A DNA stretch of 64,000 nt, from NCBI GenBank assembly GCA_021827985.1, contig JAKATL010000007.1:13764-77763 (forward strand), read 5' to 3'. This DNA is from a bacterium (lineage in GTDB: Bacteria > Chloroflexota > Dormibacteria > Aeolococcales > Bog-877). The number at the start of each line of letters is the position of its first letter. Positions within the stretch are counted from its first letter, which is position 1. A model generated the notes under the pieces. The model ran no database searches. It was not told where the DNA came from and worked only from the letters and a program-made list of their open reading frames with translations. Below, piece by piece: positions 43,767 through 60,976 of the stretch. Position numbers and translations under genes: made by a program.

Positions 43767-43801
43767 GGAGGTCCGCCCACGACGGCCGGGCACGGCAGCT
43801 G

Positions 43802-44839
43802 ATGGTGCTGGCGGGAGACGGGATCGGACCAGAGGTGGTGGGCGCCGCCCTCGAAGTTCTTGACGTTCTCCGGGAGCGGCTGCCCTGGCCGGTGGAGGTC
43901 CACCAGGCCCCTCTCGGGCGGGCCGCCCTCAGAGCCTACGGGGAGACGGCGCCCGCGCATGTGCTCAGGGAGGCGCGCCGAGCGGACGCGGTGCTGGTCG
44001 GCGCGGTGGACACCGTGGGAGCGGTGGCGGACGGCGCCAGTGGACCTTCGGCCATCCTGGTGTTGCGCCGGGCCCTTGGTTGTCACGCGGCCTTGCGGCC
44101 CGTGCGAGGCTGGCCGGGGGTGGCCCACGCCTCGCCGATCCGCACCAGGGCAAGCACCCAGCTCGACCTTCTCTTCGTGCGCGACCTGAGGGGCGGAGCC
44201 TTCGCCGGGCCCCACCGGCGGACCTCCCTTGCGGTCGGGGGAAGGGCCGCCACGGACCGGATGGCCTACACCGAGTCGCAGGTCCGCCGGGTGGCCCAGG
44301 CGGCATTCGCGTGCGCGGGGCAGCGCCGTGGCCAGCTCACCTCCGTTGAGTATGGCCCCGGCTTGGCCACCGGGGCTCTCTGGACAGCGGTGCTGGGTGA
44401 GGTGGCCGTCCAGCATCCGCAGGTCGGATTCCAGCGCATGCGGATCGGGGACTTCTGGCGCCTGCTCCTGCGCCGGCCCCAGGACTTCGACGTGGTGGTG
44501 ACCGAGAATCTGCTTGGTGACATTCTGAGCGATGCGGCTGCGGCCCTGGCCGGGTCGCTGGGGCTGATGCCCTCTGCGAGCCTGGGGCCGCCAGACCGCC
44601 CGGCTCTGTACGAGCCCGTGCATGGCGCCGCGCCACAGCTTGCGGGACAGGGGTCAGCCAATCCATTGGGGGCGATTCTGAGCTTGGCCATGCTCCTCGC
44701 TGACTGGGGCCGGGACGAGGCCGCTGCCGCCATAGAGGTAGCGGTTGCCGCCGCCTTGCGAGCCGGGGTCGCCACCCCCGACATCGGCGGAAGCGCCACC
44801 ACCGCCTCCATGACGGCCAGTGTGCTGGAGCGCCTCTGA
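43802..44839 (+). CDS. homoisocitrate/isocitrate/isopropylmalate dehydrogenase-family enzyme (HICDH in this context)
   Basis: MVLAGDGIGPEVV is the N-terminal motif. VVVTENLLGDILSDAAAALAGSLGLMPSASLG and LYEPVHGAAPQLAGQGSANPLGAILSLAMLL are the beta-decarboxylating dehydrogenase signature. Confidence 0.8.
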   Translation: MVLAGDGIGPEVVGAALEVLDVLRERLPWPVEVHQAPLGRAALRAYGETAPAHVLREARRADAVLVGAVDTVGAVADGASGPSAILVLRRALGCHAALRPVRGWPGVAHASPIRTRASTQLDLLFVRDLRGGAFAGPHRRTSLAVGGRAATDRMAYTESQVRRVAQAAFACAGQRRGQLTSVEYGPGLATGALWTAVLGEVAVQHPQVGFQRMRIGDFWRLLLRRPQDFDVVVTENLLGDILSDAAAALAGSLGLMPSASLGPPDRPALYEPVHGAAPQLAGQGSANPLGAILSLAMLLADWGRDEAAAAIEVAVAAALRAGVATPDIGGSATTASMTASVLERL

Positions 44840-45305
44840 CGGCCGCCCTCTCGGGCGCCGGGGCGGTGGCGGCCCGTCTCGCGACCAGCAGGGCCAGCTT
44901 CCCCCTGAGACCCGGCGATGGCCGCCGGAGGGGCGCGCGGATCCCCGCAGCCGGACCCCGCCGGCCTGCGGGGCCTTCTTACCGGCTGCAGATCTGACGG
45001 GCCCTTCGGCAACATCGGCCCTTCCCGGTCGTGACCCCGCGTGAACCATCGCCCCTTGGGGGTGGGGCCCGCGTGGAGGGAGACTCAGCTCCCGTGGTTG
45101 GGATGGTGGGTGGACGCAAAGTCAGCTTGGTGAGGACCGGGAAGACGGGCGCCTGCACCCGCTCTGATCTGCCCACCCGGAGGGGCTGAGCCAGCCCAGC
45201 AGCGCCCCGGGACCGGCCGGCTCGCTCGAACGGATGTATCATCGGCGGAGACCGGCCGACATGCCTGCCGGAGGTACGGAGTGAGCGCGCCCGCGCGGCC
45301 GGGGC

Positions 45306-46607
45306 TTGACGGCTGACCGGCAGGCTGAGGAGGCCATCTTGGAAGAGCCGGACCGACTCCTTGGAGGTGTCACCGGGTACCTGCTCGGCCTCCGACCACG
45401 GCTCCCGGCCGCAGTCTGGACCGTGGTGGCCGGGGGAGCGGTTTCTGCTCTGGGCAACGGTTTCGTCCTTCCGTACGGCTCCATCTACCTGCATGTGGTG
45501 CGCGGCATCCCGATACCCGTGGTAGGCGCCCTTCTCTCCTTCTCGGCGCTGGCCTCGCTCCTGGTGGCGGTGGCCGGAGGCACCCTGGTGGACCGGCTCA
45601 GCCCCAAGGCGGTGATCCTCCTCGGGCTGGGATTCCAGACGGTGGGGTTTGCGTCCCTGGGGTTTGCCACCGGGATTCCCCAGGCCGCGCTCTCGCTGGG
45701 GCTGGTGGGGCTGGGTGCCGGGTGCTTCTTCCCCGCCCTGGGGGCATTGCTGGCGGCCATAACTACCCGGGCGGAGCGGACCGCCGCCGCCTCACTACAA
45801 TATGCCGCCAACAACCTAGGCATCGGCGTGGGCGCCATCGTGGGCGGGCTGCTGGTGTCCACCTCCCGCCCCAGCAGCTTCACCCTGGTCTACCTGCTGG
45901 ACGCCGCCACCTTCGTGGTCTTCGCCGCGGTGGCGATCCTGCTGGTGCCTTCCGGACGGCACCGTGAGGAGCGGGCCAAGAGTTCCGGGTATCTCGCCGT
46001 CCTACGGGACTGGCGCTTCATGGCGGTGGTGCTCTTCAACGTCATGGTGGTGGTCTCCACCTACTCCCAGCTGGACAGCTCTGTGCCCCTGTACGCCCGG
46101 GTCTTCCTCAGGGTGCCCACGGCCGCCATCGGGCTGATCCTCGCCGCCAACACGGCGTTCATCGTCCTCGCCCAGCTGCCCCTGGCCAGAGCCGTCCGCG
46201 CGGTGCCCCGCACCACGACCCTAACCCTGTGCGGAGCAGTCTGGGCCGCCTGCTGGATGGTCGGCTGGCTGGCCAGCCTGGAGCGGGGCCTGGCGGCGGC
46301 TGCCTGGCTCGGAGTCTTCGCCGTGATCTTCGGCGCCGGCGAGTGCTTGCTCAGCGCCACTCTGGGACCCCTGGTCGCCGATCTGGCGCGCCCGGCTCTT
46401 CGCGGCCGCTACATGGCCGCCTTCAATCTCTCATGGTCGATTGGACTGCTGGTCGGACCGAGCTTGGGGGGAGTTCTGGTGGGGTCCTTCCTGCGGCCCT
46501 GGATGTGGCTGACCTGGGCCGCCGTCGCCGTTGGGCTCGCGGTCTGGGCCTCACTGTTGGCCCGCTGGTTGCCCGACGCGGTCAACCGGGCGCCTCTGCC
46601 TGCCTGA
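45306..46607 (+). CDS. MFS transporter (12 TM)
   Basis: Twelve hydrophobic segments with MFS loop motifs (GTLVDRLSPKAV, LGPLVADLARPALRGRYMA). Confidence 0.8.
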   Translation: MTADRQAEEAILEEPDRLLGGVTGYLLGLRPRLPAAVWTVVAGGAVSALGNGFVLPYGSIYLHVVRGIPIPVVGALLSFSALASLLVAVAGGTLVDRLSPKAVILLGLGFQTVGFASLGFATGIPQAALSLGLVGLGAGCFFPALGALLAAITTRAERTAAASLQYAANNLGIGVGAIVGGLLVSTSRPSSFTLVYLLDAATFVVFAAVAILLVPSGRHREERAKSSGYLAVLRDWRFMAVVLFNVMVVVSTYSQLDSSVPLYARVFLRVPTAAIGLILAANTAFIVLAQLPLARAVRAVPRTTTLTLCGAVWAACWMVGWLASLERGLAAAAWLGVFAVIFGAGECLLSATLGPLVADLARPALRGRYMAAFNLSWSIGLLVGPSLGGVLVGSFLRPWMWLTWAAVAVGLAVWASLLARWLPDAVNRAPLPA

Positions 46608-46667
46608 CGTGCCGCACGGCTCCCCGGGTGGACGGTGGGCGGGCTGGCGACGAGACCGGCGCCCGGT

Positions 46668-47084
46668 CTAGGCGGATACGGCGATGCTGACCTCGGGGGG
46701 CTGGCGCAGGGAGTTGTGGACGGTGCAGCGGGCGGCCACCGAGAGCAGCGACTCCTGCACCTCCGGTGGCAGCTGGGAGACCCCGCTCACCCCGAGGGAG
46801 ATCCGGCTCACCCGGTAGGGCCGGGTGGCGTACTCGACCTCTGATGTGACGGCCAGGCTGTCCACTGGGTGGCCATGGCGGGTGAGGAAGCGGCGGACGT
46901 AGAACCCGACGCAGGCGGCCAGGCTGGCGATGAAGAGCTCGGTGGGGGTGGGGGCGGTGTCCTCGCCGCCATCCGTCTCCGGCTGGTCAACGTGCAGGAT
47001 GTGCTGGCGCATGGAGAGCCGGAACCGGTCGCCCGACTCGTGCTCGACCCGCACGGCCACCTCGGCGGCGGTCCCCGCCTCCAC
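46668..47084 (-). CDS. OsmC/Ohr-family peroxiredoxin-like protein
   Basis: GDRFRLSMRQHILHVDQPETDGGEDTAPTPTELFIASLAACVGFYVRRFL...TSEVEY fits the OsmC fold with its conserved Cys pair context. The start is a GTG 2 nt after the trxA stop. The longer listed ORF upstream is Arg/Gly-rich non-protein-like sequence. Confidence 0.7.
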   Translation of the reverse strand: MEAGTAAEVAVRVEHESGDRFRLSMRQHILHVDQPETDGGEDTAPTPTELFIASLAACVGFYVRRFLTRHGHPVDSLAVTSEVEYATRPYRVSRISLGVSGVSQLPPEVQESLLSVAARCTVHNSLRQPPEVSIAVSA

Positions 47085-47086
47085 TG

Positions 47087-47464
47087 TCAGACGGCCTCGG
47101 GCGCGGCCTGGGCCGCCTCCACCTGGGCGCGGACCTCGTCCATGTCCAGCTCCTCGACAGCCGCGATGAGCTTCTCCAGCGAGCTGGCCGGCAGCGCCCC
47201 CGGCTGGGCGAACACCAGGATGCCGTCGCGGAAGACCATCAGCGTGGGAATGGAGCGGATCCCCAGCCCCTGCGCCAGCCCCGGCTCGGCCTCGGTGTCG
47301 ACCTTGGCGAACACCATCGAAGGATGCTTCTCCGAGGCCGCCTGGAACACCGGAGCGAAGGCCCGGCAGGGGCCGCACCAGGCCGCCCAGAAGTCGACCA
47401 GGACCATCCCCGGCCCGTTTACCGTCTTCTCGAAATCTGCCTCGCCGAGTGCGGTGGTGGCCAT
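47087..47464 (-). CDS. trxA: thioredoxin
   Basis: The WCGPC active site sits in VLVDFWAAWCGPCRAFAPVF. The fold pattern AKVDTEAEPGLAQGLGIRSIPTLMVF is typical. The start was trimmed to MATTALGE. Confidence 0.85.
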   Translation of the reverse strand: MATTALGEADFEKTVNGPGMVLVDFWAAWCGPCRAFAPVFQAASEKHPSMVFAKVDTEAEPGLAQGLGIRSIPTLMVFRDGILVFAQPGALPASSLEKLIAAVEELDMDEVRAQVEAAQAAPEAV

Positions 47465-47577
47465 GGCTGCCTCGCTATGAATGTACCCCAGTGGGTATGG
47501 CTTGCTGACGCAAGTGTACACCAGACTCGCGTGCCAGTACGAATGGGAGCGGGCTGCGGCGCCCGTCTTGCACCGGG

Positions 47578-48423
47578 TCAGATCCCGATGAGCACGACCG
47601 AGATGGCGGCTGCCAGCAGGCCCGCCCGTTGCACCCGGTTCCAGCGCTCTCCCAGCCCGAACCGTGCCAGGAGCACGGTCACCGCCGGGTAGAGGGAGCT
47701 GATTACCGCCACCAGCGCCAGCTGTGCCAGGCCGGTCGCCTGCAGGAAGAGGATGTTGCCGGCACCCCCCAGGATCCCCGCCCCGGCGGCCAGAGGTGCC
47801 ACCCGGCGCCAGCCGCCGCCACCCGATCGGACTGCGGCGCTCCCGACGATGAGGAGCGACACCAGCTGCCCGGAGATCAGTGGCCAGGTTCCGGATGCCG
47901 TGCCGGCTCGATCCAGGGCGATGAAGAGAAGGGCGAAGCCCACGCCGGCCAGGAGCGCCTCAGAAACGCCGAGGCCCCTGGCACGGTGCTCCCGGGCCTG
48001 CCAGGAGACCATGGCCACCGCCGGGATGGCGATCACCATCCCGGCCAGCTGCACCGCGGCCGGTCGGTTCCCCAGCGCCAGCCCCACGGCCGCGGGTATC
48101 AGCGCTGCCAGCACTCCGGAGAGCGTCGCCACCACCGTCATCTCGCCGATCGCCAGGCCGCGGTAGAGCGCCAGGATCCCGAACCCGCTGCCCAAGCCGC
48201 TGGCGGCTCCCCAGGCGAGGGCGGCCGGAGCCGGCCCCGACCAGGGGAAGAGCAGCAGCCCCAGAACTGCCGCGGTCAGGGCCAGAGGCTGCCCGGTGAC
48301 TGCCACCAGGGCCGTTGACCCACGGCGCCCGGCCACGCCGGCGAGGAAGTCGGAAGCGCCGTAGCCCACCGCGGCGCACAGGCTCAGGGCGATCCCCACC
48401 CGGCCAGCGTACTGGGGCGACAA
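47578..48423 (-). CDS. EamA/DMT-superfamily transporter (10 TM)
   Basis: Two EamA-like repeats of hydrophobic helices (GIALSLCAAVGYGASDFLAGV..., ...AGILGGAGNILFLQATGLAQLALVAVISSLYPAVTVLLA). TTG/GTG start. The upstream part of the listed ORF is Arg/Pro-rich non-protein-like sequence. Confidence 0.7.
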   Translation of the reverse strand: MSPQYAGRVGIALSLCAAVGYGASDFLAGVAGRRGSTALVAVTGQPLALTAAVLGLLLFPWSGPAPAALAWGAASGLGSGFGILALYRGLAIGEMTVVATLSGVLAALIPAAVGLALGNRPAAVQLAGMVIAIPAVAMVSWQAREHRARGLGVSEALLAGVGFALLFIALDRAGTASGTWPLISGQLVSLLIVGSAAVRSGGGGWRRVAPLAAGAGILGGAGNILFLQATGLAQLALVAVISSLYPAVTVLLARFGLGERWNRVQRAGLLAAAISVVLIGI

Positions 48424-48473
48424 GCGCCATCGCCATCCGCCGCCCCCGGGGTCGGGCCAGCTCCGCCCCTGGT

Positions 48474-50300
48474 ATGGTCGCCCCCGTGGCCCCGGACATC
48501 CGTGACTTCCTGGCCGCCCCGGTGTGGCGGGCTCTGGACGTGGACGACGAGGGGCGGGTGCTGGCGGGCTGTGACGCCCCCGGGACCATCCAGCTGGTCG
48601 AGCTGGCCTTCGATGGCACCCCGACCTGGCTAACCGACCTCCCGGGCGGCTGCTCCGGGCGGTACCTGCCCGGTGAGCGCCTCGTGGTGGTCGAGCACGA
48701 CCAGGACGGGGACGAGCGCTGGCAGCTGTCGCTGCTGGACCTGGAGGAGCCCCCGACTGAGCCGGTGGGGCCGGCGGGGCTTCAGCCACTGGTTCGCGAT
48801 CCCCGCTTCCTGCACCAGCTCGTCCAGGTGCTTCCCGGCCAGGTGGTCTACCGCACCAACCGGCGCAACGGCGTCGACTTCGATGTGGTGATCCGCGACC
48901 TCAGGTCGGGTGCCGAGCGGGAGGTGTACGCCGCGGGCGGCATGGTCGAGGGGGTGGCCCTTGCACCATCCGGGGAGGCGGCGGTTCTGACGCGGGCCGC
49001 CACGTGCCCCATGTCCGAGCAGCTTCTCCTAGTGAACCCGATCGGAGCCCCACCCCGCCAGCTCACCGGCTCAGACCTTCCCGCCCAGCACCTGTTCCCG
49101 GGCTTCGCCGGCCCCTCCAGCCTGGTCCTCACCACCGACCGCGAGCGTGAGCACACCGCAGTCGTCGAACTGGACCTCAAGAGCGGGAGCTGGAAAGAGC
49201 TCATCTCCCGTCCGGGATTGGACGTGAGCGGCCACCTCGCGCCCTCTTCCACCCGCCTCCTTCTGCGGGTCAACCGGGGGGGGCGGGCGGAGCTGGAGCT
49301 TCACGAACTGGATGTCGCGCGGGCGCCGATCCCGGTCGCCCTGCCCGGAGCCGGATGGATCGGGGAGCCCACGCTGCCATCTCCCGCCTGGGCGCCATCC
49401 GGGAGGTGGGCCGCCGTCTCCTTCAGCAGCCCCACAGTCCCCGGGGACGCACTGAGGGTCGACGCCCTGACCGGGGAGGTGGCCACCGTCGCCAGCAGCC
49501 AGGGGGACCTAGGCGCCCACAGCTTCAGCTTGCCCACCCTGCATGAGGTTCCCTCCCCAGCCGGGCGGCCGATCCCCTGCTGGGTCTACGCGCCCACCGC
49601 ACCCGGTGGCCCGCTCGCCGGCTCGGCCGTCGTCGTGGTCCATGGTGGTCCCGAGTCCCAGTCGGTGGCCAGCTTCAACCCGGTGATCCAGGGCCTGGCG
49701 GCGGCAGGGCACACGGTCATCGTCCCCAACGTCCGGGGATCCACCGGGTACGGACGGGGCTGGTACTCGGCGGATGACGGCCGCCGGCGCCTCAACCCCG
49801 TCGCCGATCTGGAGAGCATCCACGCCTGGCTGCCGCAGGTGGGGGCCGACCCCTCCCGGGCAGCCCTCTGGGGCGGCTCCTACGGCGGCTACATGGTCCT
49901 CGCCGGCCTGGCCTTCCAGCCCCAGCTCTGGGCTGCGGGGGTGGACATCGTGGGGATCTCCTCCCTGGTCAGCTTCCTGCGCAACACCTCAGGCTACCGC
50001 CGAGCGGCTCGGGAGCGCGAGTACGGCTCGCTGGAGGCCGACCTGGACTTCCTTGAGCTTGCCTCGCCGCTTTCGCGGGTCGACAACATCCGCGCCCCCC
50101 TCTTCATGATCCACGGGGCCAACGACCCTCGGGTACCCCTCAGCGAGGCCGAGCAGCTGGCCAGGCGTCTTCGGCAACGGCAGGTGGAGTGCCACCTTCT
50201 GGTCTACGGGGACGAGGGCCACGGCCTCGCCCGCCGGCGCAATCGGCTGGACGCCTATCCTCGGGCGCTCCAGTTTCTCGCGAGGCATCTGTCCGGCTGA
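48474..50300 (+). CDS. S9-family serine peptidase (prolyl oligopeptidase/dipeptidyl peptidase-like) with N-terminal beta-propeller
   Basis: The catalytic nucleophile motif is LWGGSYGGYMVLAGL (GxSxGG). The downstream Asp/His region is IHGANDPRVPLSEAEQL...GDEGHGL. TolB-like propeller repeats lie upstream. The start is at MVAPVAPD. Confidence 0.85.
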   Translation: MVAPVAPDIRDFLAAPVWRALDVDDEGRVLAGCDAPGTIQLVELAFDGTPTWLTDLPGGCSGRYLPGERLVVVEHDQDGDERWQLSLLDLEEPPTEPVGPAGLQPLVRDPRFLHQLVQVLPGQVVYRTNRRNGVDFDVVIRDLRSGAEREVYAAGGMVEGVALAPSGEAAVLTRAATCPMSEQLLLVNPIGAPPRQLTGSDLPAQHLFPGFAGPSSLVLTTDREREHTAVVELDLKSGSWKELISRPGLDVSGHLAPSSTRLLLRVNRGGRAELELHELDVARAPIPVALPGAGWIGEPTLPSPAWAPSGRWAAVSFSSPTVPGDALRVDALTGEVATVASSQGDLGAHSFSLPTLHEVPSPAGRPIPCWVYAPTAPGGPLAGSAVVVVHGGPESQSVASFNPVIQGLAAAGHTVIVPNVRGSTGYGRGWYSADDGRRRLNPVADLESIHAWLPQVGADPSRAALWGGSYGGYMVLAGLAFQPQLWAAGVDIVGISSLVSFLRNTSGYRRAAREREYGSLEADLDFLELASPLSRVDNIRAPLFMIHGANDPRVPLSEAEQLARRLRQRQVECHLLVYGDEGHGLARRRNRLDAYPRALQFLARHLSG

Positions 50301-50357
50301 GAGCTGGGGCGCCGCTCCCACCTATATTCGAGTATTCGAGCAGTTTGGGCGCGCCGG

Positions 50358-50738
50358 GTGCGGGGCGCGCCGCCCCTCAATCCAGGTGCCCACTTGTCCC
50401 AGGTCCAAGGCCATCCGCGTCGCTGGCTGATCCTCGCCGTGGTCACCGTGGTGGCCTTCATCGGCAACGTCCACGGCACCATCGTGGTGGTCGGGCTGCC
50501 CCGGATCGTCCAGGGGCTGCACACCACCATCACCACCGGCCTCTGGACCCTGACCGGCTACATCATCACCAGTACCGTCTTCCTGCTGCCGGCGGGGCGG
50601 TGATCGGACGTCGTGGGCCGGAAGCGGATCTTCCTGGTCGGTGTGGGGCTGTTCGGCCTGGGCACGGTCCTCTGCGGGTTCGCTCCGTCCGGGGGAGCCC
50701 TGGTGGGTTGGCGCCTGCTGCAGGGGGTAGGGAACTAG
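50358..50738 (+). pseudogene. 5' fragment (~125 aa) of a DHA2-type MFS efflux transporter, frameshifted near 50603 and truncated at the junction with the serine-recombinase element
   Basis: Frame 1 reads RRWLILAVVTVVAFIGNVHGTIVVVGLPRIVQGLHTTITTGLWTLTGYIITSTVFLLPAGR then stops. The family-typical continuation SDVVGRKRIFLVGVGLFGLGTVLCGFAPSGGALVGWRLLQGVG is in the +1 frame (50603-50735). Homology ends abruptly at 50738, where the sequence turns AT-rich. Confidence 0.6.
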
Positions 50739-52582
50739 TCCCCGAGAACATCCCGCAAGAGCCCGTACGTATGTGTTAGTCTGCAGTTGTGAACCTGACT
50801 GAGTGGGCCCGCCGCCAAGGGATCCACCCCCACACCGCGTACCGATGGTTTGAGAGCGGCACCCTGCCGGTGCCGGCGGAGCGGGTGGGGCCGCGCACCA
50901 TCCTGGTGAACGTCGGCGCGGCCAGCGCGCTCCCGGCAGCCGGCCTGGGCCTCTATGCGCGAGTCTCGACCCGTGGGACGCAATCGAGCGGACCCCTGGC
51001 TAGATCCTCGGCCGTGCCCGCCGTCTTCAATTGCTGATTGGGGCAGAGCCAGGACCACCTGGACCTTGCCCCCACCTGCGTCGATGATAACGCGGCGGAC
51101 AAGCAGGCGTACAACTTGGCGCCGTCCGTCGAAGTCAAGTTGGCCGATCCCCTCAGAGACCCGCGCCGTGAAGGCCTCCAGGGATTGCAGCACGGCCGTC
51201 CAGTAGTCGCGGCCGCTGCGCCGGTCCGCCTGTGCCGCAAGGTCAGCTTCCAGACGCCCTAGGTGGTCCTTGAGCTCGGCGAGGCGCTGGCGCAGGTCTG
51301 TCTGGTCGAGCTCACCGTACTGGTAGAGGTCGACCAGCCGCTTCTGCTGGCTCCGCAGCCTGGCCCGGCGCCGCTCCGCCTCCCGTCGTTGCGCAGAATC
51401 CGTGCTGTCGGCCCCCAAGGTATCGATGCGGCGCTGGTACTCCCGCATGAGCGTCCCGGGGTCCTCACGAGCCTCCCGGACTGCGTCCCAGACCGCCTCC
51501 TCAAGACCCTCGGCTCTGACCGCTGGCGTCGGGTAGCGGCAGGCGCGACGATCACCGACGTTGAGCGGGTCAGCGGCACTGCACCGGTAAAGACGTCGCC
51601 CGTGGCTGACTGCCCCGGACATGGCAGCACCGCAGCTGGGGCAACGAACCAGACCGCCCGACAACAGGTAGCTGTGCCGCTTGTTGTTCCTCGGCGAGAA
51701 GCGGAAGTTCTCGGCAAGCTGCTGCCGGGCCCGTTTGAAGGTGGCCTCGTCGATGATCACAGGAACCCTGATAGCGACCCAGTTCTCCGTCGGCTGCACC
51801 TGGCGGACGGTCTTCGGCCGGTTCGATGGAGATGACCCGCCGGCTGATTCTGCCTTCACATAGGCGTTCCGCGCGTACAAGAACCGGCCTGCGTACCCTT
51901 CCTGCCGGAGCATGCGCCCGACCGTCGAGGCTCGCCAGTGGTCACCTCCCGCCGGTGCTGGCAGACCTCGCTCAGTGAGTACTCGGGCGATCTGCCGACA
52001 GGACTGGCGGTCCTCGACCAGCAAGCGGAACATCTCCCGCACCACATCGGCCCGGTCATCATCGATGGTCAGAGTCGCCCGCCTTGATCCGGACCGCGCG
52101 ACGTACCTGAAGCCGTAGGGAACGAAGCCCCCCATCAGGGCTCCCTCCCGCGCCCGAAAGAGCTTGCCTCGGCGCATACGATCTCGGATCACCTTGCCCT
52201 CGAAGTCGGCGAAGTCTCCCAGGATGTTCTCGATGAGCTCCCCTTGCGGGCTCGCGTCCGAAGGGTGCTGCACGAACTCCAAACGTGCTCGGCGCCTGAG
52301 CTCCTTAAGGAGGAGGGCCTGATTGCAGCGGTCCCGCGACAGCCGACCTATCTCGTGGATAACGATCACGTCGACGTCGCCCCGGGCGACTGCGTCGCGT
52401 AGGCGGTCGAGCGCGGGGCGGGCGAGATCGTACCCTGATCGGGCCTCGTCGACGAACTCGGTTGGAGTGTCGTAGCCTTTGCGCTGAGCATAGGTGCGCA
52501 GGGCGTCCAGCTGGCTCTCGACGGTCTCCTCGCGCTCCTGCCTCTCAGAGCTAACTCGGGCGTATAGGGCGACTCGTGTCAT
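50735..52582 (-). mobile_element. large serine recombinase (site-specific integrase/resolvase family) of an integrated element
   Basis: The N-terminal resolvase catalytic domain is MTRVALYARVSSERQ...SQLDALRTYA...DVIVIHEIGRLSRD. A recombinase domain, a zinc ribbon (CPSCGAAMSGAVSHGRRLYRC) and a coiled-coil (LRSQQKRLVDLYQYGELDQTDLRQRLAELKDHLGRLEADL) follow. An AGGGGGGA RBS precedes the ATG. The last ~130 codons are low-complexity and may be read-through. The gene's 3' end abuts the truncated MFS gene. Confidence 0.85.
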
Positions 52583-52915
52583 CGGTGATCCCCCCTGATG
52601 TGGCGGCGGAGTGTAGCGGCTTCTGTTGTGTAGTGGGGGGATACTTCGCGACTTCACCGGCCTGTCGCGGTGGGCGGGCGTGCAAAGCGCCCGGCGGGGC
52701 CTTCTCAGCCTGCAGCGCCAGCTCAACCGCCTGCCGCAGCCGATCATGCGTGTCGGGCACCGGCTCCCAGACGACGACCGTCTGGAGGGGACCGCAGGCA
52801 GTTCGGGGATGCCGTTCTGAACTCACCTCTCAACGATCGGGTGTGGGCACCGCCTCCGCGTGGCGGGGTCGGGCTGCCGGGTCCGCAACGCGCTCCTTGG
52901 AGGCATGACCAGCGG

Positions 52916-53830
52916 ATGCCCAGAAAGCTGAGCGGCGAGGACCTGCATGGCCTTCTGGCGGCTGTCTACGGGCCGCCGCCCTGGGACCTCACGGCTGAGG
53001 GAGTGGCCGCGAAGCTCAGCGCCCTCCGCCAACCCCTGGTCAGCGGCGAGGGTCTGTCGGCGGACATCAAAGAACGGGAGAGGAAGCGGCGGGCGCTGGC
53101 CAAGCCCCCGGCCGTCCGCCGGCCAGCTGAGGACGAGCTAGCCCACGAATGGCTGTCTATACATCGAGAGGCGGCAGCGCAGAAAGCCTTTCGGACGCGC
53201 CTCATCTACCTCGCGCGGTCAGCCGTTCCGGTAGCCGAGGCAAGTGCCGCAGTCGACTTGGCCAGTGCGCCTGGACCCGGGTGGCTGCGGACAGCGCCAG
53301 CCCCGGACGCACCCAGGGGCGGAAGCGCCCCTATCGACCGAGCGGTCGCCCGGCTGATCGAGCGGCACAGACTCCCGCCGACCCGGGCGGCCGCTCGGCG
53401 GCTCAGCCGGCACCTGCTGACCGGCAACCCCGACTGGCTCATAGGCTGGGACCTGAGCATGGCGCTGGTTCGAACCCCCGGCGAGTCTGTGGAGCCCGGG
53501 TACGACTCCCTGACGGTGACGGTGGTCGGGCTCGACGCCTTCGTCACGCGTGAAGACTGGGCGGAGATCTGGGAGCGGGTCGTCGAGCCTCGCCAGACCC
53601 TGTGGCTGGCGGTGCGAGGCCAACCTTCCCCGCGGGGTCCACGAGGAGTGCAGATTGCAGCGCTCGAGGCGACTATGCCACTGTACCGTGCGATTGTCCT
53701 GGATGGCTTGTCGCTACCCCAGGCACGGCAAGCGCTGCAGGAGAAGAGGGGGCGATCCACAGGGATCTCCCCCTCAACCGACTACCGAGGGGTCCGCGCG
53801 CTCCGGCGGCTACTCGAACCCGGCCCGTAG
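52916..53830 (+). CDS. hypothetical protein (304 aa), divergent from the serine recombinase
   Basis: Protein-like composition with no motif I can assign. The start is the internal ATG MPRKLSG; the upstream part of the ORF is Ala/Pro-rich non-protein-like sequence. Possibly an element-encoded regulator or recombination directionality factor. Confidence 0.45.
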   Translation: MPRKLSGEDLHGLLAAVYGPPPWDLTAEGVAAKLSALRQPLVSGEGLSADIKERERKRRALAKPPAVRRPAEDELAHEWLSIHREAAAQKAFRTRLIYLARSAVPVAEASAAVDLASAPGPGWLRTAPAPDAPRGGSAPIDRAVARLIERHRLPPTRAAARRLSRHLLTGNPDWLIGWDLSMALVRTPGESVEPGYDSLTVTVVGLDAFVTREDWAEIWERVVEPRQTLWLAVRGQPSPRGPRGVQIAALEATMPLYRAIVLDGLSLPQARQALQEKRGRSTGISPSTDYRGVRALRRLLEPGP

Positions 53831-53876
53831 TCCCAGCCCTTCGCCCCGGTGATCATGCACCTATCCTGACAGGACC

Positions 53877-54953
53877 ATGGAAGACGATACCGGGGGACGC
53901 CGTCGCAGTTGGTGGGCCATCGTTGGCCCTCTGCCGTCCTCTGAACCTACGGGCTGGCTCACGACACCCCACGACCGTACCCGCGTGCTCGATCGGGAGT
54001 ACGAGGTCGGCCCACTGCGTCTTCGTCCCGGTGGGAAGCGCTTGGTCGAGTACTTGCGCCTGGACCCGCTGGCACTGGAGGGCATAAGGAGGTCCGAGTC
54101 GTGGCCCCTTCTCGTGGAGAGCTCCTGGGAAGATGGTCTGCCCAGGATCTTTGCGAGCGGCCCGGAGGAAGTTCGAGCGGCCAAGCCAACCTGGCCAGCC
54201 ATCGAGCGGCAAGGCAGTGAGGACTTGCACCGGCTCTGCGCGCTCCTTTCCTTGGCGTGGGGTGAGCCCTGGCAGGTCCGAACCTCACCCAAGCCTTCGG
54301 AGCACCTCGACGCCGAGGTGCCGGACTCATGGCCAGCTCCACCCAGATGGCACCAGGACGACGACTTCCCACCCTCGCACCAGGAGGGGCTGCCGGACTG
54401 GATCAGCACGGCCTGGGATCAGGTGGGGACGGACGACCACGTTGCTGCCGCTCTTACCGCCTGGCACCAGGGCCTGCTCCTGACTCCGCAGCACCCCTCG
54501 TTCGCGCACGTGGCCCTCGTAGGCGCGATCGAGGAGTTGAGTCACGCCTCACCATTCGCAGCTATCGTTGACAATGGTCTGCCGGTTCCGTGCCATACCT
54601 GCGACGCGCGACACGATGCCTCCCAGCGCTTCTGGCGGATGGTGAGGCAGGTAGCGGCCGGCGCGGAGGTTGCCGAGCTAAAGGAACTCAACCCTCTGGG
54701 GAAGCGTGGCGCGGCCGCGCATGGAGCGCGGCTCCCTGGCATCGAAACGACGTACGGCTCCGTGGTGCTCCTGGACTGGATACCCCCGAGCCCGGAGGGA
54801 GACCCTCCGAGATTCGAGTTCAATCCGGACGACCCAGCCCAGATCTTCGTCCTCAAAGTGGTGCCCGCCGTGCGTGGGATTGCCCGCCGCCTCCTTCTCA
54901 AGGCCCTCGGCGCACCTGCCAACTCGTTTACCCCGGGCCTCGGAGCGGCCTGA
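53877..54953 (+). CDS. hypothetical protein (358 aa)
   Basis: Protein-like ORF with an AGGACC RBS. It is preceded by the palindrome TCCTGACAGGA, the same motif found upstream of the RHH gene at 58043. No assignable domain. Confidence 0.5.
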   Translation: MEDDTGGRRRSWWAIVGPLPSSEPTGWLTTPHDRTRVLDREYEVGPLRLRPGGKRLVEYLRLDPLALEGIRRSESWPLLVESSWEDGLPRIFASGPEEVRAAKPTWPAIERQGSEDLHRLCALLSLAWGEPWQVRTSPKPSEHLDAEVPDSWPAPPRWHQDDDFPPSHQEGLPDWISTAWDQVGTDDHVAAALTAWHQGLLLTPQHPSFAHVALVGAIEELSHASPFAAIVDNGLPVPCHTCDARHDASQRFWRMVRQVAAGAEVAELKELNPLGKRGAAAHGARLPGIETTYGSVVLLDWIPPSPEGDPPRFEFNPDDPAQIFVLKVVPAVRGIARRLLLKALGAPANSFTPGLGAA

Positions 54954-54994
54954 AGAGGTCATCGTGGGACCGACCGGGTAGTCCACCCAGTCCA

Positions 54995-55130
54995 GCATTC
55001 GTCCACGAGTCCTCCCATTCGTCCAGCCACGAGTCCACGCCGTCCCTGTGCCGTTGCGGGACGACGTTAGGGACGACATCTGAGATCATCCGCAGGACGA
55101 CATACGTGACGACGCCTCCGACGACATGAC
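54995..55130. repeat. intergenic cluster of short direct repeats: 2x CATTCGTCCA..CGAGTCC and at least 5x GACGAC(AT)
   Basis: Seen directly: CATTCGTCCACGAGTCC / CATTCGTCCAGCCACGAGTCCACG, then GGGACGACgttagGGACGACATctgagatcatccgcagGACGACATacgtGACGACgcctccGACGACATgacg. It lies immediately upstream of the 55155 gene. Confidence 0.55.
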
Positions 55131-55154
55131 GTACTGTGGCGGTGCAAGATCATC

Positions 55155-56285
55155 ATGTCGCTTACCGAAACTATCGAAGCCGAACTGCTGCACACCCTGG
55201 AGGGGGGTGGGGAGCCCGGGGAGGTGATCGCTCGGTATTCGGGCTCCAAGGGTCCCCTGTACTCCGCGCTGGCTCGGGCGACCGCAAGGGGTTCGGTGGA
55301 GCTTGCCCGCATCCGGCAGCAGCTTGCCGAGGTCCGAGGCCATCTTGCCCAGGCACAGCGGGACGCCGCCACAGCGGAGTCGAGGGGCCACAAGGCTCAG
55401 GTCGTTGCGGCTGCCGCAGAGGCCCGAACCTCGGAGCTGGCCGAGGCAGTCGCCCACGCCGAACGGGTTCTGCGGCAGGCCGAGGCTCTCCGAGCGCAGG
55501 GTTGCGGTGACGAGACCCTGGCGGCCATCGGAAGGCTTATAGCCGCAGTTGCCGATGGGGACGGGATTCCGCCTGCAGAGGCCGTTACCCGCCTGCTGGA
55601 GGCCGGTGAACACCACGGCCGTCTGGTCGACTTCGAGGCTCAAGCCCTGGCTGTGGAGCGCCGCCTCCAGCGCGCTCAGTCCGAGCTAGCGCGGTTGACG
55701 CCTACGGTCGCAGCCTTGAGGGACGAGCGAGAGGTCATCAAAGCGGGGTTGGCCGCAATCGCCGCCGACGGGACCAGCCAGCTGGCCAGGGCGCAGCAAG
55801 TGGCGGTCACCGCGCTGCAGGAGGCCCAGCGAGCGGCGCAGGGCGCTCTGCAGCAGGCTGGGATGCGGGCTCAGTCCCAAGCCCAGGCGGCCGAGCAGGC
55901 AGCAGAGCGGAGCCTGGCTGGCTACCGACGCCTCACCCGGGAGGCCGCCCTCCTTGAACAGGACGTCACCTTCGCCCGGCTCCTCCGGGATCCGGACGCC
56001 CGCTACTGGCAGGTGGTCGCCCCGTCAAGTTGGCAAGTCGTTATTGCTCGACTGGCCGCCTGGGCCGGTGCCGTGGTCCCCGACCTCCCGGTGCCGATTC
56101 CCGAGCCCGTCAAGGGGGTCGTGGCCGGGAGCGTCAGCTACCCGGCGGTCTACGGACCGCTCCGGGTCCCGCTTCTTGGGCTCATCGCCTGGCTGAGCGA
56201 GGGGATCAAATTGGTGCCCAGTGCGGCCCTCCGGGCGCACCTCGACCGGGTGGCCGACAGCAACTCGCGGGTGGAGTCCGAATAA
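55155..56285 (+). CDS. hypothetical coiled-coil protein (376 aa) with hydrophobic C-terminal region
   Basis: Long Ala/Gln/Arg/Glu-rich heptad-like stretches (about residues 40-290) are followed by a hydrophobic C-terminus (AVVPDLPVPIPEPVKGVVAGSVSYPAVYGPLRVPLLGLIAWL). No catalytic motif. Confidence 0.5.
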   Translation: MSLTETIEAELLHTLEGGGEPGEVIARYSGSKGPLYSALARATARGSVELARIRQQLAEVRGHLAQAQRDAATAESRGHKAQVVAAAAEARTSELAEAVAHAERVLRQAEALRAQGCGDETLAAIGRLIAAVADGDGIPPAEAVTRLLEAGEHHGRLVDFEAQALAVERRLQRAQSELARLTPTVAALRDEREVIKAGLAAIAADGTSQLARAQQVAVTALQEAQRAAQGALQQAGMRAQSQAQAAEQAAERSLAGYRRLTREAALLEQDVTFARLLRDPDARYWQVVAPSSWQVVIARLAAWAGAVVPDLPVPIPEPVKGVVAGSVSYPAVYGPLRVPLLGLIAWLSEGIKLVPSAALRAHLDRVADSNSRVESE

Positions 56286-56360
56286 CTGGCTGAGCGCGAG
56301 CTACCTCGGGAGGTGGAGATGGCTGATGGCGGCCCAGCGCGGGCCGCCATCAGCCCACCA

Positions 56361-57851
56361 TCAACTCACAGGGACAGTGTGCGGTCCCCGCGCGGCCAGG
56401 GCCGGAACCAGGTTCGCGGCGATAGGAGTTCCCAGGCCGGTCACCGGATCCCACCCGGGGCTGGCGCTGTACCCCGGAATCGCGGGATCGGTCTGATTGT
56501 TGCCGATCGTGACGTCGTTGAAGTAGGTGCTGTAGCTGCCGCCAGCGGCGAGTGCATAGAGCGAGTCGTTGATGAGCCCCAAGTTGGTGCCGGCCTTCTG
56601 GTCTGCAAGCGAGACCATCGCCGCGAACTGGGGCGATGCTGCCGAGGTGCCGCAGATCCCGTAATACCCCGGTGTGAAGCCTTGGGCCGAGATGTACACC
56701 CATACGAAGGTTCCGCATGAGGCCTGCCAGGCTACATCTGGAACGCCGCGCATGGTGCCGCTGAAGTTGGATCCAGTGGGCAGGTTGTCCTGATATGGCG
56801 GGCGGGCGAAGATCTGGCTGAAGCCGCCCCCGGATCCCCGCCAGGCCACGTCGTGCTGAGCCGGAGAGACGTTGCAAGCGGAAGGGCCACCGGTAGGCTC
56901 AAGGCTCGACCCCGTGACGGGGTTGGTGCAGAGGTTGGTCCCGCCGACCGCCGTGACCAGCGGATCCGACGCCGGCCATTGGACAGTTGGATAGGGGATG
57001 GTGCTGCCGCCCTGGCCAACCGGAGTCTTGGTGGAGTTGGCGGTACCGCTGTCACCAGCGGCTGCCATGAAGGTGATACCCGCTTCGGTCCCCGTGATGA
57101 AGGCGTGGCGAAGGCTGAGGAGCGACTGTGCGCTCCCGAAGGAGCCCTCAGCGGCAGCGAAGCTCTGGGTCACAACGTTGGCCATGTGGTGGTCCACCAC
57201 GTACTGCTCCGCGTTCATCATGTTGGGGAAGCCCTGCACGCCAAGGGTCTCAGCGGTGGGGACGACCACGAGGAGGATGTTGGCCTCCGGGGCGATCGAG
57301 TGGGCCCACTGGGTGTCCAGCGCCACCTCGCCGACCCACCCGCTGCTCTGCTCCTGGCCGGGGCCGTAGGGATTGCTCTGGGAGCTGCTGGTGGGTGGCT
57401 TGACTTGGCGGTTGCCGAACATCAGCACATGGAAGGTGGGCATGCCCGGCTTGCAGGTGACACCTGGCATTCCACACATGAGAGGGAGCCCGTAGGCTTG
57501 AGAGAAGGTCTCCAGGTCAGAAGCGACTGCCGGGTAACCGAACGAGTCAACGATGGCTATGGTCTCCCCCTGGCCCATCAGTCCAGAGTTGTAGAGAGGG
57601 GTCAGGTCGTACGAGACCTGCATCGAACTGGGGTCGAAAGCCCGCGCTCCGAAGTAGAAGCCTCCCGGAGGAGCCTGGGTGCCTGCCTCAAAGGCTCCTT
57701 GGAACTGGGCGCTAAGTGGCGTCGCCGCCGGATAGGAGATCGGCCTCGCCGCTGCTCCGACCGCGACTCCCGAGGAAGCAGCCACCGCGCCGAACGCCAG
57801 CGCTGCTATCCACGCGCGCCAGCTCCGCAACCGCACGCCAGAGGATTTCAT
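56361..57851 (-). CDS. secreted S53-family (sedolisin/kumamolisin-like) serine peptidase
   Basis: A GGGAGGA RBS is followed by a signal peptide (MKSSGVRLRSWRAWIAALAFGAVAASSGVAVGAAA), a pro-domain-like region, the catalytic domain (VDHHMANVVTQSF, AAGDSGT) and the nucleophile motif GYYGICGTSAASPQFAAMVSL (SGTSAAxP type). Confidence 0.75.
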   Translation of the reverse strand: MKSSGVRLRSWRAWIAALAFGAVAASSGVAVGAAARPISYPAATPLSAQFQGAFEAGTQAPPGGFYFGARAFDPSSMQVSYDLTPLYNSGLMGQGETIAIVDSFGYPAVASDLETFSQAYGLPLMCGMPGVTCKPGMPTFHVLMFGNRQVKPPTSSSQSNPYGPGQEQSSGWVGEVALDTQWAHSIAPEANILLVVVPTAETLGVQGFPNMMNAEQYVVDHHMANVVTQSFAAAEGSFGSAQSLLSLRHAFITGTEAGITFMAAAGDSGTANSTKTPVGQGGSTIPYPTVQWPASDPLVTAVGGTNLCTNPVTGSSLEPTGGPSACNVSPAQHDVAWRGSGGGFSQIFARPPYQDNLPTGSNFSGTMRGVPDVAWQASCGTFVWVYISAQGFTPGYYGICGTSAASPQFAAMVSLADQKAGTNLGLINDSLYALAAGGSYSTYFNDVTIGNNQTDPAIPGYSASPGWDPVTGLGTPIAANLVPALAARGPHTVPVS

Positions 57852-58086
57852 GCCACGTCCTCCCTTGCTACTCACCTAGCCAGCGAACGCATCGCCGCCT
57901 CCGACGACATCCTACTCCTCAGTTCCCGCGCCGTCGGCCGGGCACAAGTCCAACTCTGCCGGATCTCCCCTGTAGTTAGGCTCGCCTGTGATCAGGTCCA
58001 GGGTGGCAGAACCTACACCTCTTGACGATGGCGTCCAATCGTCCTATCCTACAGGACGCTAGTCCTACACTACAGAGGAGGTCGTC

Positions 58087-58476
58087 ATGGGCGTGATCAA
58101 GAAGACCGTGGTCCTCGATGACCGCATCGAGAGGTTCGTACGCCGGACTCAGGCGCTGATGCTGGAGGCCGAGCCCCCCATCGAAGCGACGTACTCCTCT
58201 GCCCTGAACTTCATGCTCCTGGCGGCCATCCATGAGGCCTCCCGTCCGGGCGGCCTGTCAGCCGAGACCCGGGAAGTCATCTGGGACTTCGCGCGCGACA
58301 ACGACACCCTGGAGGAGCTGAACCTGCACGAGCGGATGGGAGCGGTCCGTGCCGCCCTACTGCTCGGCGAAGGCGTTGAACACCCCCACGCCAGGCAGCC
58401 TCCAGCCAATCCATCTCCTGAGGCGCCGGATGGCGAGTCCGACACGTCGGCTCCCCACCCGACGGCGGCCGAATGA
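58087..58476 (+). CDS. ribbon-helix-helix (CopG/Arc/MetJ-like) domain protein with acidic/Pro-rich tail
   Basis: The N-terminal beta-strand-helix-helix pattern is KKTVVLDDRIERFVRRTQALMLEAEPPIEATYSSALNFMLLAAI. A GAGGAGG RBS precedes it, and upstream lies the palindrome GTCCTATCCTACAGGAC. Confidence 0.55.
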   Translation: MGVIKKTVVLDDRIERFVRRTQALMLEAEPPIEATYSSALNFMLLAAIHEASRPGGLSAETREVIWDFARDNDTLEELNLHERMGAVRAALLLGEGVEHPHARQPPANPSPEAPDGESDTSAPHPTAAE

Positions 58477-58636
58477 ACCCGGCTGGCATCCTGCAGGGGG
58501 TCGCTCCTCTCTGCAGCCACCTCGGCTGGGGGGCAGGGGCACCGGGGCGGCCCTGTGCCCGGGCCGACGAGGCGCTGCCGGGAGCGGCTTCCGTGTGCAT
58601 GCAGGCCGGGCTCGATGGGCTGCAGATGGCGCGGCC

Positions 58637-59272
58637 ATGCTAGCCGCTGTTCGGCGAGCCTGCGGGTGCATGGTCCTCTTCTTGGCCGTGGGCGCGGCGT
58701 TGGGCGTGGCTATCGCCGCCTACCCGTACGTCGCCCCCCAGGTCCCCCGGGCCGCCTCAGCCGTTTCTCATGGGGTGAGCGAACTTCGCTCCCTGGTGTA
58801 TGGGCTCCAGCGGGTAGGGCCGCCAGCCCACCTTCCGGCGACCCCCGCACCGCTACCATCAACGGCGGCGACACCGGCCAAACCGACGTGGACCCGGCCC
58901 AGCTCGGATAGCTGCCAGTGGGGGATCTCCCTTCTGGCCCAGGACCACGCCCTCGACGTGAGGGCAGCCCGAGAGTACCCCGCCTGGCAGACCTGGTACG
59001 ACACTACTGCCGGTTGGTGGGCAGGGGCCGAAGTGGATCTGGAGGGTCTGTGCGGTCAGGCGGCTGCGCCCAGCCGTGCCAGCTGCCAGGCCGACCTGTC
59101 CCACTTCAGCGAGGCGGAGCAGAACCACGAGGCCGCGGCGGCTGGCACGGAACCGAGTTCGATGCCCGGTACGACGACCCAGGATCGGACATGGAACTTG
59201 GAGTGGGCCGCAGACTACCGGCGGCTCTTCGGCATCTTCGCCATCACCGGCTGCGGTGGCGTGGGCGGATGA
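58637..59272 (+). CDS. hypothetical membrane-anchored/secreted protein
   Basis: An N-terminal TM/signal anchor (CMVLFLAVGAALGVAIAAYPYVA) is followed by a Cys-containing extracellular region. No assignable domain. Confidence 0.4.
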   Translation: MLAAVRRACGCMVLFLAVGAALGVAIAAYPYVAPQVPRAASAVSHGVSELRSLVYGLQRVGPPAHLPATPAPLPSTAATPAKPTWTRPSSDSCQWGISLLAQDHALDVRAAREYPAWQTWYDTTAGWWAGAEVDLEGLCGQAAAPSRASCQADLSHFSEAEQNHEAAAAGTEPSSMPGTTTQDRTWNLEWAADYRRLFGIFAITGCGGVGG

Positions 59273-59624
59273 CGACGCGAGGGGCCTCCAAGCGGGGCAG
59301 GCCTTGGCACGGGGCCGCCCCAATGGGGAGGGAGGCCCCGTAGGCAACGTGCTGCCGCCCTGCCGAGCCACGGATCGAGGTTTGGATCGCCGGCTGCTGG
59401 CGCCTGTTGTCCGTGCTGCCGGCGACCCACTGCGGCATCCCGTGAGTCGCCGCCACCTGGGAGAGCCGCAAAGAGAGACGGCCAGGCGCCGGACGCGATC
59501 AGCTGCCGGGAGGACCCGGCTCCCCGGTGGCTCCCCAGCGCCCCCCCTGCTCTGCGACCAGCTCGACAGTCGCCCAAGGGTTGGGCCTTCCGATCAGAGG
59601 GGAGATGGGCGGGTGCAGGAGAGA

Positions 59625-59682
59625 GGTGTCCTGATCCGGTGTCCTGATGAACCGCTGACGCTCCCCTGACCGGTGTCCTGAC
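59625..59682. repeat. three direct copies of GGTGTCCTGA(T/C) (iteron-like) upstream of the 59715 gene
   Basis: GGTGTCCTGAT occurs at 59625 and 59638, and GGTGTCCTGAC at 59672. Additional CTGAC repeats lie between, and a CTACTGTAG palindrome sits at 59696. Confidence 0.5.
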
Positions 59683-59714
59683 GCCGACCTTAGAAGCTAC
59701 TGTAGGAAGGAGCG

Positions 59715-60974: not shown

Positions 60975-60976
60975 CG

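Follow-up and report, generated by a model that had tools for sequence, protein, structure and literature searches.

A 64,000-nucleotide stretch of DNA from a bacterium of the Dormibacteria (hereafter the window; contig JAKATL010000007.1 of assembly GCA_021827985.1, positions 13,764 to 77,763 of the forward strand) was analysed around position 50,700, where a gene for a transporter of the major facilitator superfamily (MFS) breaks off and the gene for a large serine recombinase (LSR) begins on the opposite strand. The initial annotation of this locus had described a serine-integrase element inserted into the MFS gene. The features that lie at the break are listed below; they comprise the MFS fragment, part of an insertion sequence (IS) of the IS607 family with its transposase gene (tnpA), and the edge of the island that carries the LSR gene.

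50358 to 50732, forward strand: 5' fragment of a DHA2-type MFS pseudogene, codons 1 to about 123-125 of 505
50724 to 50732, no strand: MFS/IS junction zone GGGGTAGGG, in which MFS-derived and IS-derived letters are indistinguishable
50725 to 50788, forward strand: non-coding IS607 left end, which aligns with the left ends of three IS607 copies that have other flanks (L048, L010 and L011)
50789 to 50967, forward strand: tnpA', codons 1-60 of an IS607 serine transposase gene (NCBIfam NF033518; 407 homologues)
50945 to 50995, no strand: putative left attachment site (attL) of the LSR island, with LYARVS-coding DNA as the B half-site and a P' half-site with GGACGCAAT at 50976-50984
50735 to 52582, reverse strand: LSR open reading frame (ORF) of 615 codons with Resolvase, Recombinase and Zn_ribbon_recom domains
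52583 to 52915, no strand: intergenic region that separates the divergently oriented LSR gene and a gene of 304 amino acids (aa); it is conserved, with long stretches unchanged among the window, L011 and L010

The transporter remnant and the IS607-family sequence

The MFS gene is a truncated pseudogene. Its ORF starts at the GTG at 50358, and a tblastn search of the window with the intact 505-aa orthologue of a related genome (L001:11883-13400) returned one in-frame segment, in which aa 4-125 correspond to 50367-50732 at 97.5% identity; aa 126-505 had no match anywhere in the 64 kb. The remaining 380 codons and the genes downstream of the MFS gene are absent from the window. A scan of a genome collection, with the S9 peptidase gene upstream of the MFS fragment as the query, identified six syntenic loci in related uncultured bacteria (L001-L006; S9 peptidase 82-89% identical at the protein level). 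The DHA2-type gene is intact in these six relatives. BLASTN alignments of all six of these metagenome-assembled loci with the window (84-91% nucleotide identity) end at 50731/50732. Codon 82 (50601-50603) is an in-frame TGA in the window and TGG (Trp) in six of the six relatives. These results bear out a DHA2-like 5' fragment whose 3' half is not in the window, as had been proposed, but correct two details of that proposal: the supposed frameshift at about 50603 is a TGG>TGA nonsense codon, with both ORFs (50358-50603 and 50613-50738) in one frame (50613-50358 = 255 = 85 x 3), and the homology that was said to end at 50738 is lost by 50732 at the latest, with the junction inside 50724-50732. 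With about 123 of 505 codons left and an internal stop, the locus does not encode a full-length DHA2 protein of 14 transmembrane segments, and its fragments match family models weakly and far under the cut-offs (TIGR00711, E 1.6e-6; MFS_1, E 2e-5). The TGA lies 120 bp upstream of the IS607 junction and recurs in a second assembly described below (L112). This is consistent with decay of the gene after, or independently of, the insertion, the order of the two events being indistinguishable.

The sequence that follows the break belongs to the IS607 family. IS607 inserts at GG, preferably (G)GG, carries GG at its termini and produces no target duplication (PMC6188088). At the junction the G-run reads CAGGGGGT, the MFS gene of the relatives continues GGGGTSGGG and the IS starts GGGTAGGG; because the MFS continuation resembles the IS start, the junction can be placed only within 50724-50732. 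The A at 50729 is IS-type (the relatives carry C or G there), and four other IS607 copies begin GGGTWGGG after differing flanks. The break would be read as an IS607-type GG crossover somewhere in the G-run 50724-50732. The G+C content of 50725-50788 is 54.7% against about 70% on both sides, which locally substantiates the G+C-poor sequence noted earlier after the break, and three CCCG motifs are visible by inspection at 50741, 50752 and 50762, spaced 10-11 bp. The product of tnpA' begins MNLTEWARRQGIHPHTAYRWFESGTLPVPAERVGPRTILV and reaches GLGLYARVS; it comprises the N-terminal helix-turn-helix (HTH) domain, a linker and the catalytic-serine motif GLYARVS, beyond which a chance ORF extends to a stop at 51037. 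It matches NF033518 over profile positions 2-68 of 187 (E 8e-7, 28.7 bits), and a protein-database search returned 407 homologues, 60-81% identical and many of them named IS607 family transposase. The homology of all 407 ends after GLYARVS, where true transposases go on SHDQ..DLERQ; the continuation typical of an intact tnpA is …GTCTCSAGCCACGACCAG… An IS607 copy that is uninterrupted at the LSR site (L048) aligns with the window from its left tip GGGTTGGGAACTGG through tnpA and reads through the point of divergence as VSSHDQ (GTCTCCTCGCACGACCAG versus GTCTCGACCCGTGGGACG).

A metagenome contig from sample ERZ27237313 (L112) is 100% identical to window 38474-50945, including the TGA, the MFS/IS junction and the IS tip. 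Since this contig reproduces the junction, the MFS::IS607 insertion is confirmed by a second assembly. The roughly 243 bp from 50725 to 50967 have IS607 identity and represent the left end and first 60 tnpA codons of an IS607-family element, of which the remainder of tnpA is absent from the window. The MFS gene is therefore cut by an IS607-family IS and not by the LSR island, whichever account of the adjacency between the two is preferred below, and the recombinase element that was thought to adjoin the MFS break is separated from it by these 243 bp. The uninterrupted copy has surroundings of its own: on L048:1-10764 its tnpA is truncated (113 aa), a PemK toxin pair and a second resolvase gene come after it, and paralogous genes for nucleoside hydrolases and sugar-MFS proteins lie on either side. 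This layout suggests that the region has been rearranged.

The large serine recombinase, its junction and its island

Judged by its domains, the reverse-strand ORF is predicted to encode a large serine recombinase. Pfam matches cover PF00239 Resolvase (E 2.2e-27, residues 4-148), PF07508 Recombinase (E 8e-17, residues 176-292) and PF13408 Zn_ribbon_recom (E 1.6e-10, residues 310-369); the catalytic motif ALYARVSSERQ is present, and residues of about 400-470, a candidate for the coiled-coil motif that controls directionality in such enzymes, are heptad-rich by eye (RREAERRRARLRSQQKRLVDLYQ...). Residues 1-538 (50969-52582) are encoded by the island, and residues 539-615 (77 codons plus the stop) are antisense tnpA' and IS left end. 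No stop codon of the gene precedes the crossover, and the same gene has 635 codons under another flank (P0241). Since the change of flank alters the tail (615 vs 635 aa), the C-terminal tail of the LSR is flank-dependent, and a database entry of either length carries a tail that does not belong to the enzyme. The recombinase gene annotated as ending here on the opposite strand thus stands as an ORF and in its domains, but not in its 615-aa extent. A search of 5.8 billion proteins returned three closest relatives, namely the source protein itself, P0002 (66% identical) and P0003 (52%), and no member of this clade was found among viral contigs (best match at most 32% identity) or JGI metagenomes (at most 37%). 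The nearest solved structure is SPbeta SprA (9dxh, E 1e-14) and the nearest phage protein is the WO recombinase (31% identity). Although the best NCBIfam models are CcrB (E 7.5e-25) and XisF (1.9e-23), membership of either family was rejected on scores far beneath the cut-offs (88 vs 900 bits and 83 vs 375, respectively). An inversion switch that would fuse the HTH domain to the LSR was also considered; it was dropped when no inverted repeat was found linking the YARVS codons of the two genes, tnpA' and LSR.

The tnpA homology ends abruptly at a motif that is conserved in three diverged LSR elements. In the loci of the two relatives (L011 with P0002 and L010 with P0003) the LSR 3' end likewise lies antisense over an IS607 tnpA fragment that is broken after YARVS; each fragment is preceded by an IS607 left end, and the chromosomal flank beyond the IS tip is different in each locus. 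Around the break, the window, L010 and L011 share the 18-mer TCGACCCGTGGGACGCAA without a difference, amid neighbouring positions that vary; it is absent from viral contigs. A sister clade of LSRs (P0006, P0008 and P0009; about 46% identical) carries the same GGACGCAA motif near the 3' ends of the genes, 8 nt from the junction in L043, L044 and L045. These LSRs adjoin the N-terminus of P-loop ATPase genes that are cut within Walker-A (GYVGP|KT, LLLGG|KT and LVGPNGAG|T), at the following junctions, all of which share the half-site motif GGACGCAAT.

L043, 5647 to 5910: sister-clade Walker-A junction
L044, 11588 to 11773: sister-clade Walker-A junction
L045, 2616 to 2732: sister-clade Walker-A junction

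No IS607 fragment was found at these three junctions. Because the sister clade has the motif without IS607 DNA, the island boundary is placed at the GGACGCAA motif, and the 8-nt spacing of the sister clade would put the crossover in the window at about 50966-50967 (±2). The YARVS-coding stretch of IS607 tnpA would then be the attB of this LSR, used by conservative site-specific recombination at about 50966-67, and the sister-clade pattern suggests a lineage with short, motif-coding attB sites. The ABC ATPase that neighbours the L043 junction was considered as the other half of the interrupted gene and rejected, being an intact gene with a Walker A of its own.

The extent of the island is visible on nearly identical contigs, from which island gene calls were also taken. 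The 90% cluster of the LSR includes P0241, which is encoded on three ENA contigs (L108-L110) that differ from window 50724-62582 at 5 of 11,859 bp. L111, a further sequence taken from one of these contigs, matches window 51528-64000 at 100% identity and then extends further through cas genes, a CRISPR array, an IS3-family IS, a zinc-ribbon ORF of 115 aa, some 190 bp of G+C-poor DNA and the 3' part of a tnpA (tnpA''). This far end matches IS607 TnpA profile positions 127-187 (E 9e-18, 64.5 bits) in the same orientation as tnpA', and it is followed at the contig end by a 58-codon ORF start that has no NCBIfam match and is presumably tnpB. An IS607 serine transposase is thus recognised as fragments only, positions 2-68 in the window and 127-187 on L111; both pieces, being fragments, score below the full-length cut-off of NF033518 (110 bits). 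We infer that the genome of the window continues as the identical contigs do; the island would then measure about 22.0 kb (window-equivalent 50968 to about 72950) and be bracketed by two parts of one IS607 tnpA. A functional, conserved excisionase or recombination directionality factor was considered for tnpA' and rejected, given that TGG is replaced by TAG in L108-L110 and that the transposase homology stops at the junction; the nonsense codon indicates that tnpA' is a remnant.

The expectation that the element exceeds 13 kb, with its far end beyond the window, is borne out, and a second attachment site was not found in the window. The composition comparison suggested in the initial annotation likewise supports foreign DNA: G+C content is 71% before 50.7 kb and 67.7% after, and G+C content at third codon positions (GC3), 0.86-0.90 in flank genes, drops to 0.74-0.81 in all genes between 50.97 kb and the end of the window. 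The accompanying picture of a classic phage or integrative and conjugative element (ICE) found no support. Searches of the island ORFs against Pfam, PADLOC and PHROG revealed no phage structural, conjugation or relaxase genes, the matches being limited to an S8-like peptidase, a LysE exporter, a sub-threshold NikA-like protein and Cas proteins, and ten island ORFs had no PHROG match. By its gene content the element appears to be a non-phage integrative island. Its genes after the LSR gene are as follows.

52916 to 53830, forward strand: conserved hypothetical gene, 304 aa, 65% identical to L011:3-971(-), which lies beside the 66%-identical LSR
53877 to 54953, forward strand: hypothetical gene
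55155 to 56285, forward strand: hypothetical gene, coiled-coil-like
56361 to 57851, reverse strand: secreted S8-like peptidase with a signal peptide (PF00082, E 1.8e-6, partial)
58087 to 59272, forward strand: small hypothetical genes
59715 to 60086, forward strand: NikA-like ribbon-helix-helix ORF, 123 aa (sub-threshold, 26.0 bits vs a cut-off of 27; weak TraJ/MobA matches)
60345 to 60974, reverse strand: LysE exporter
60977 to 61162, reverse strand: 61-aa ORF
61528 to 64000, forward strand: cas3g (type I-G Cas3), running off the window end (PADLOC Cas3g, E 2e-263)
61528 to 64000, then L111:10001-19600, forward strand: type I-G CRISPR-Cas locus with cas3g, cas8g1/csx17, cas7g, csb2, a cas4g-cas1g fusion, cas2 and a repeat array

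The 304-aa gene has no Pfam, NCBIfam, PADLOC or PHROG match and, from its position in both loci, appears to travel with this LSR. The S8-like peptidase gene has the lowest first-position G+C among the island genes. The NikA-like ORF is the only hint of mobilisation in the island, with no relaxase nearby. The Cas3g protein is represented by P0242 (829 aa, 100% identical), and the cas genes of L111 reach curated cut-offs except for cas2, which has a precomputed Pfam Cas2 match. The short CRISPR array after cas2 has four visible copies of a 36-nt repeat (GTCTCCACGGCTGCAACGCCGTGGCTCCATTGAAGG), reported by Tandem Repeats Finder as 2.5 units of 74 bp, with the IS3-family IS directly next to it. By its gene content the type I-G locus on L111 is complete. 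It is a further case of a defence system carried as cargo by an integrative island, in this instance from an uncultured lineage of high G+C content whose nearest named homologues belong to Candidatus Dormibacteria.

Upstream of the MFS fragment, a 36-kb stretch (window 9270-45329) is absent from the syntenic loci L001, L003, L005 and L006, where about 450 bp lie between the flanks. It encodes glutamate synthase, an ammonium transporter, histidinol dehydrogenase, GGDEF/HD-GYP signalling proteins and LysW-type lysine/arginine biosynthesis. A second island was considered here and rejected on account of the housekeeping genes, the host-like GC3 and the contiguity, in L112, of the part from 38474 on with the S9 peptidase and MFS genes; the stretch looks like a synteny difference.

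The proposed nested insertions and the competing explanations

We favour a nested arrangement, to which we assign a rough probability of 0.75, with an IS607-family element in the MFS gene, an LSR island in IS607 tnpA, and CRISPR-Cas as cargo. An IS607-family IS, moved by its serine transposase, would have inserted at a GG of the G-run near MFS codon 123 and killed the gene, and the remnant would later also have gained the TGG>TGA change. An LSR-mobilised island of about 22 kb would have come to lie inside the IS607 tnpA, with its junction right after the YARVS codons. The LSR gene at the island edge would read outward over this junction and take its last 77 codons and stop from antisense IS DNA. 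The cargo would consist of the 304-aa gene, hypothetical genes, the secreted peptidase, the NikA-like protein, the LysE exporter and the type I-G CRISPR-Cas system, and attP would form where the island's far end meets ACCCGTGGGACGCAA. What had appeared as an LSR element in an MFS gene would accordingly be two nested mobile elements. The LSR island resides within an IS607 tnpA under every account of the adjacency that is weighed below. Of the initial annotation, a genuine LSR beside an att-like junction and the foreign DNA remain; the island lies in IS607 tnpA and not in the MFS gene.

Whether the MFS-borne IS607 and the island are neighbours in a genome was examined with L108-L110. The five differences between these contigs and the window all fall in the IS part. 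Four are at the tip (50729, 50735, 50737 and 50745) and the fifth is at 50805, where the window has TGG and the contigs have TAG; from 50806 on there is none. Beyond the IS tip the contigs carry 744 bp of another flank, which ends in a tRNA-Arg(ACG) gene. The different flank, together with the differences within the IS, indicates that IS607 5' ends exist in two places, inside the MFS gene and close to tRNA-Arg. Sample ERZ27237313 holds both, namely L112 of the MFS type and L110 of the tRNA type, the latter running into the island. Three readings of the adjacency were compared: re-integration of the island by its LSR into a second IS607 copy, homologous recombination and an assembly switch. The three contigs themselves diverge from one another inside the tRNA-Arg(ACG) gene (L110:12549-12627; L108 and L109 near 12604), beyond which L108 leads into an IS3-like gene and hydantoinase genes and L109 into a gene for a 1731-aa fn3/He_PIG protein and an SSB gene; this tRNA gene is probably a separate integration hotspot.

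Several observations weigh against the nested arrangement as drawn for this genome. The join of MFS-IS607 and island crosses a 162-bp exact repeat (50806-50967) that is common to the second IS607 copy. L112 ends before the LSR at 50945, which is the single-nucleotide difference at 50805 plus 140 in an assembly with k=141, and three other assemblies attach the island to the IS copy on the tRNA-Arg side. No other contig encodes the window-type tnpA' (82-aa product) fused to the island, the join being present on the window contig alone. At the right junction there is no clean attR, as IS607 profile positions 69-126 (58 positions) are missing on L111, and a search for the P' arm in inverted orientation found none. 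Neither an attP, an empty island nor an excised circle was seen, and the known independent members of this LSR clade number only three. The simplest reading of the missing tnpA segment at the far end would be a later deletion.

Some of these observations are what a chimeric contig would produce, one that switched during assembly, within the identical 5' region of the two copies, from the MFS-borne IS607 to the tRNA-Arg-side IS607 with its island, so that the MFS fragment and the island would be neighbours in no genome. All five mismatches (5/5) fall at 50729-50805 and identity holds from 50806 on; in ERZ27237313, L112 stops exactly k-1 after the last difference while L110 has the tRNA-Arg flank, the variant left end and the island; and the window-type tnpA' is fused to the island on no other contig. 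Against this, the window contig passes through the repeat without a break and extends over 13 kb beyond it in one direction and 50 kb in the other. This is unexpected if the two incoming branches and an outgoing branch with intact tnpA were similarly covered in that sample, and it mildly favours a real strain difference; moreover, two strains with different arrangements explain the same data. We consider the chimera rather unlikely. A somewhat stronger, though still tentative, contender is a real adjacency that arose by homologous recombination between IS607 copies, either through a single crossover (inversion or translocation) or through a double crossover in both IS arms that copied the island into the MFS-borne IS607, with no integration by the LSR at this place. 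The change from window-specific to shared sequence falls within 50806-50967; the 162 bp before the LSR junction contain no difference, against five in the preceding 82 bp. A far junction without 58 tnpA positions implies that the LSR was probably unable to excise the island from that copy. The differences, however, cluster at the extreme tip of the IS, and it may be only that the copies have diverged unevenly; moreover, the far end is known from the identical contigs and not from the window's own genome.

Two further alternatives were weighed. In one, the IS607 left end and tnpA' are a fixed part of a composite unit, the island being IS607 cargo moved in trans by TnpA or the IS part a captured fragment, and the three loci descend from one ancient fusion. 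It would explain why, in each of the three clade members, the change of flank falls at the IS tip (GGGGTWGGGAAC) and the LSR junction stays constant, and why the island lies between 5' and 3' IS607 parts in the same orientation; the tnpA' sequences of the window and L011 are also mutual best matches (54/62). Transposases without an LSR are nevertheless almost as close to the window's tnpA' (52/61) as that of L011 is, and the L010 fragment is nearer to such transposases (39/59) than to the fragment of the window (35/59) or that of L011, which favours separate integrations into different IS607 lineages. Four tip differences between otherwise identical islands would not be expected from transposition of a whole unit, tnpA' is inactivated in L108-L110, and in the sister clade the junction motif adjoins P-loop genes with no IS607 DNA in between, so that the composite unit seems improbable to us. 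Least probable by far is the model of the initial annotation, in which the MFS coding sequence itself received a prophage, ICE or integrative and mobilizable element whose attL lies at about 50738. The LSR stop codon (50735-50737) does lie 3 bp from the end of MFS homology, but the DNA from 50725 to 50967 is IS607 left end and tnpA codons 1-60, the LSR tail varies with the flank (615 vs 635 aa), L112 shows the MFS::IS607 junction without reaching the LSR, and no phage or conjugation genes were found.

Target choice and comparison with known systems

The kinds of element involved, an LSR island and an IS607, are already known; the landing site is unusual. In the full-text literature searched, a statement that holds for that library only, no report of an LSR integrating into IS607 tnpA was found, and the target choice of this LSR is unusual and possibly systematic. 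A tentative generalisation, which we would not yet back over its negation, is that an LSR lineage (members at least 46% identical, with a conserved GGACGCAAT half-site) homes to DNA that encodes the catalytic motifs of other proteins, IS607 copies being docking sites for a CRISPR-bearing island, by which an immune system would be moved within and between genomes. One branch would target the YARVSS serine-nucleophile codons of IS607 transposases, whereby a serine-recombinase island would disable a serine-recombinase transposon and gain portable landing pads; the other would target ATPase genes unrelated to one another, at the Asn codon of their Walker-A P-loop. If IS607 tnpA is the attB, each IS607 copy is a potential landing site and integration would silence the IS. 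The IS arms would also provide homology for relocation of the island, which would explain one island beside two chromosomal flanks. For tool builders, this small clade of LSRs additionally offers candidate attB/attP pairs, since its half-site is conserved and easily recognised and its targets are short stretches that encode motifs.

The best NCBIfam models for the LSR of the window come from the SCCmec Ccr recombinases and cyanobacterial XisF, which are LSRs that mobilise islands of non-phage type or cut developmentally regulated elements out of the genes they interrupt, yet its scores exclude it from both families. The integrases SPbeta SprA/YokA, TP901-1, A118, Bxb1 and Wolbachia WO resemble it in their Resolvase, Recombinase and Zn ribbon domains, in a gene at the element edge beside att and in a coding-sequence target. 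Unlike these phage serine integrases, the LSR described here is at most 31% identical to any phage LSR, is accompanied by no phage genes and has no stop codon of its own before the crossover. The disrupted IS agrees with IS607, IS1535 and ISC1926 in a TnpA with an HTH followed by a serine catalytic domain, and would also share the family's lack of terminal inverted repeats and its GG/(G)GG insertion (PMC6188088). Unlike a typical IS607, this copy is split by a 22-kb island, is without 58 central tnpA positions and cannot encode its own transposase. The closest precedent, in concept only, is phiRv1 of M. tuberculosis, an LSR element with its attB in a multi-copy repeat: according to the passage of PMC9317374 that cites Bibb & Hatfull 2002, the attB of its LSR Rv1586c lies inside the multi-copy REP13E12, with several sites per genome. 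Unlike in phiRv1, the repeat used here is an IS607-family IS, the site consists of the catalytic-serine codons of a transposase, and the element has no phage-like genes and carries a CRISPR-Cas system.

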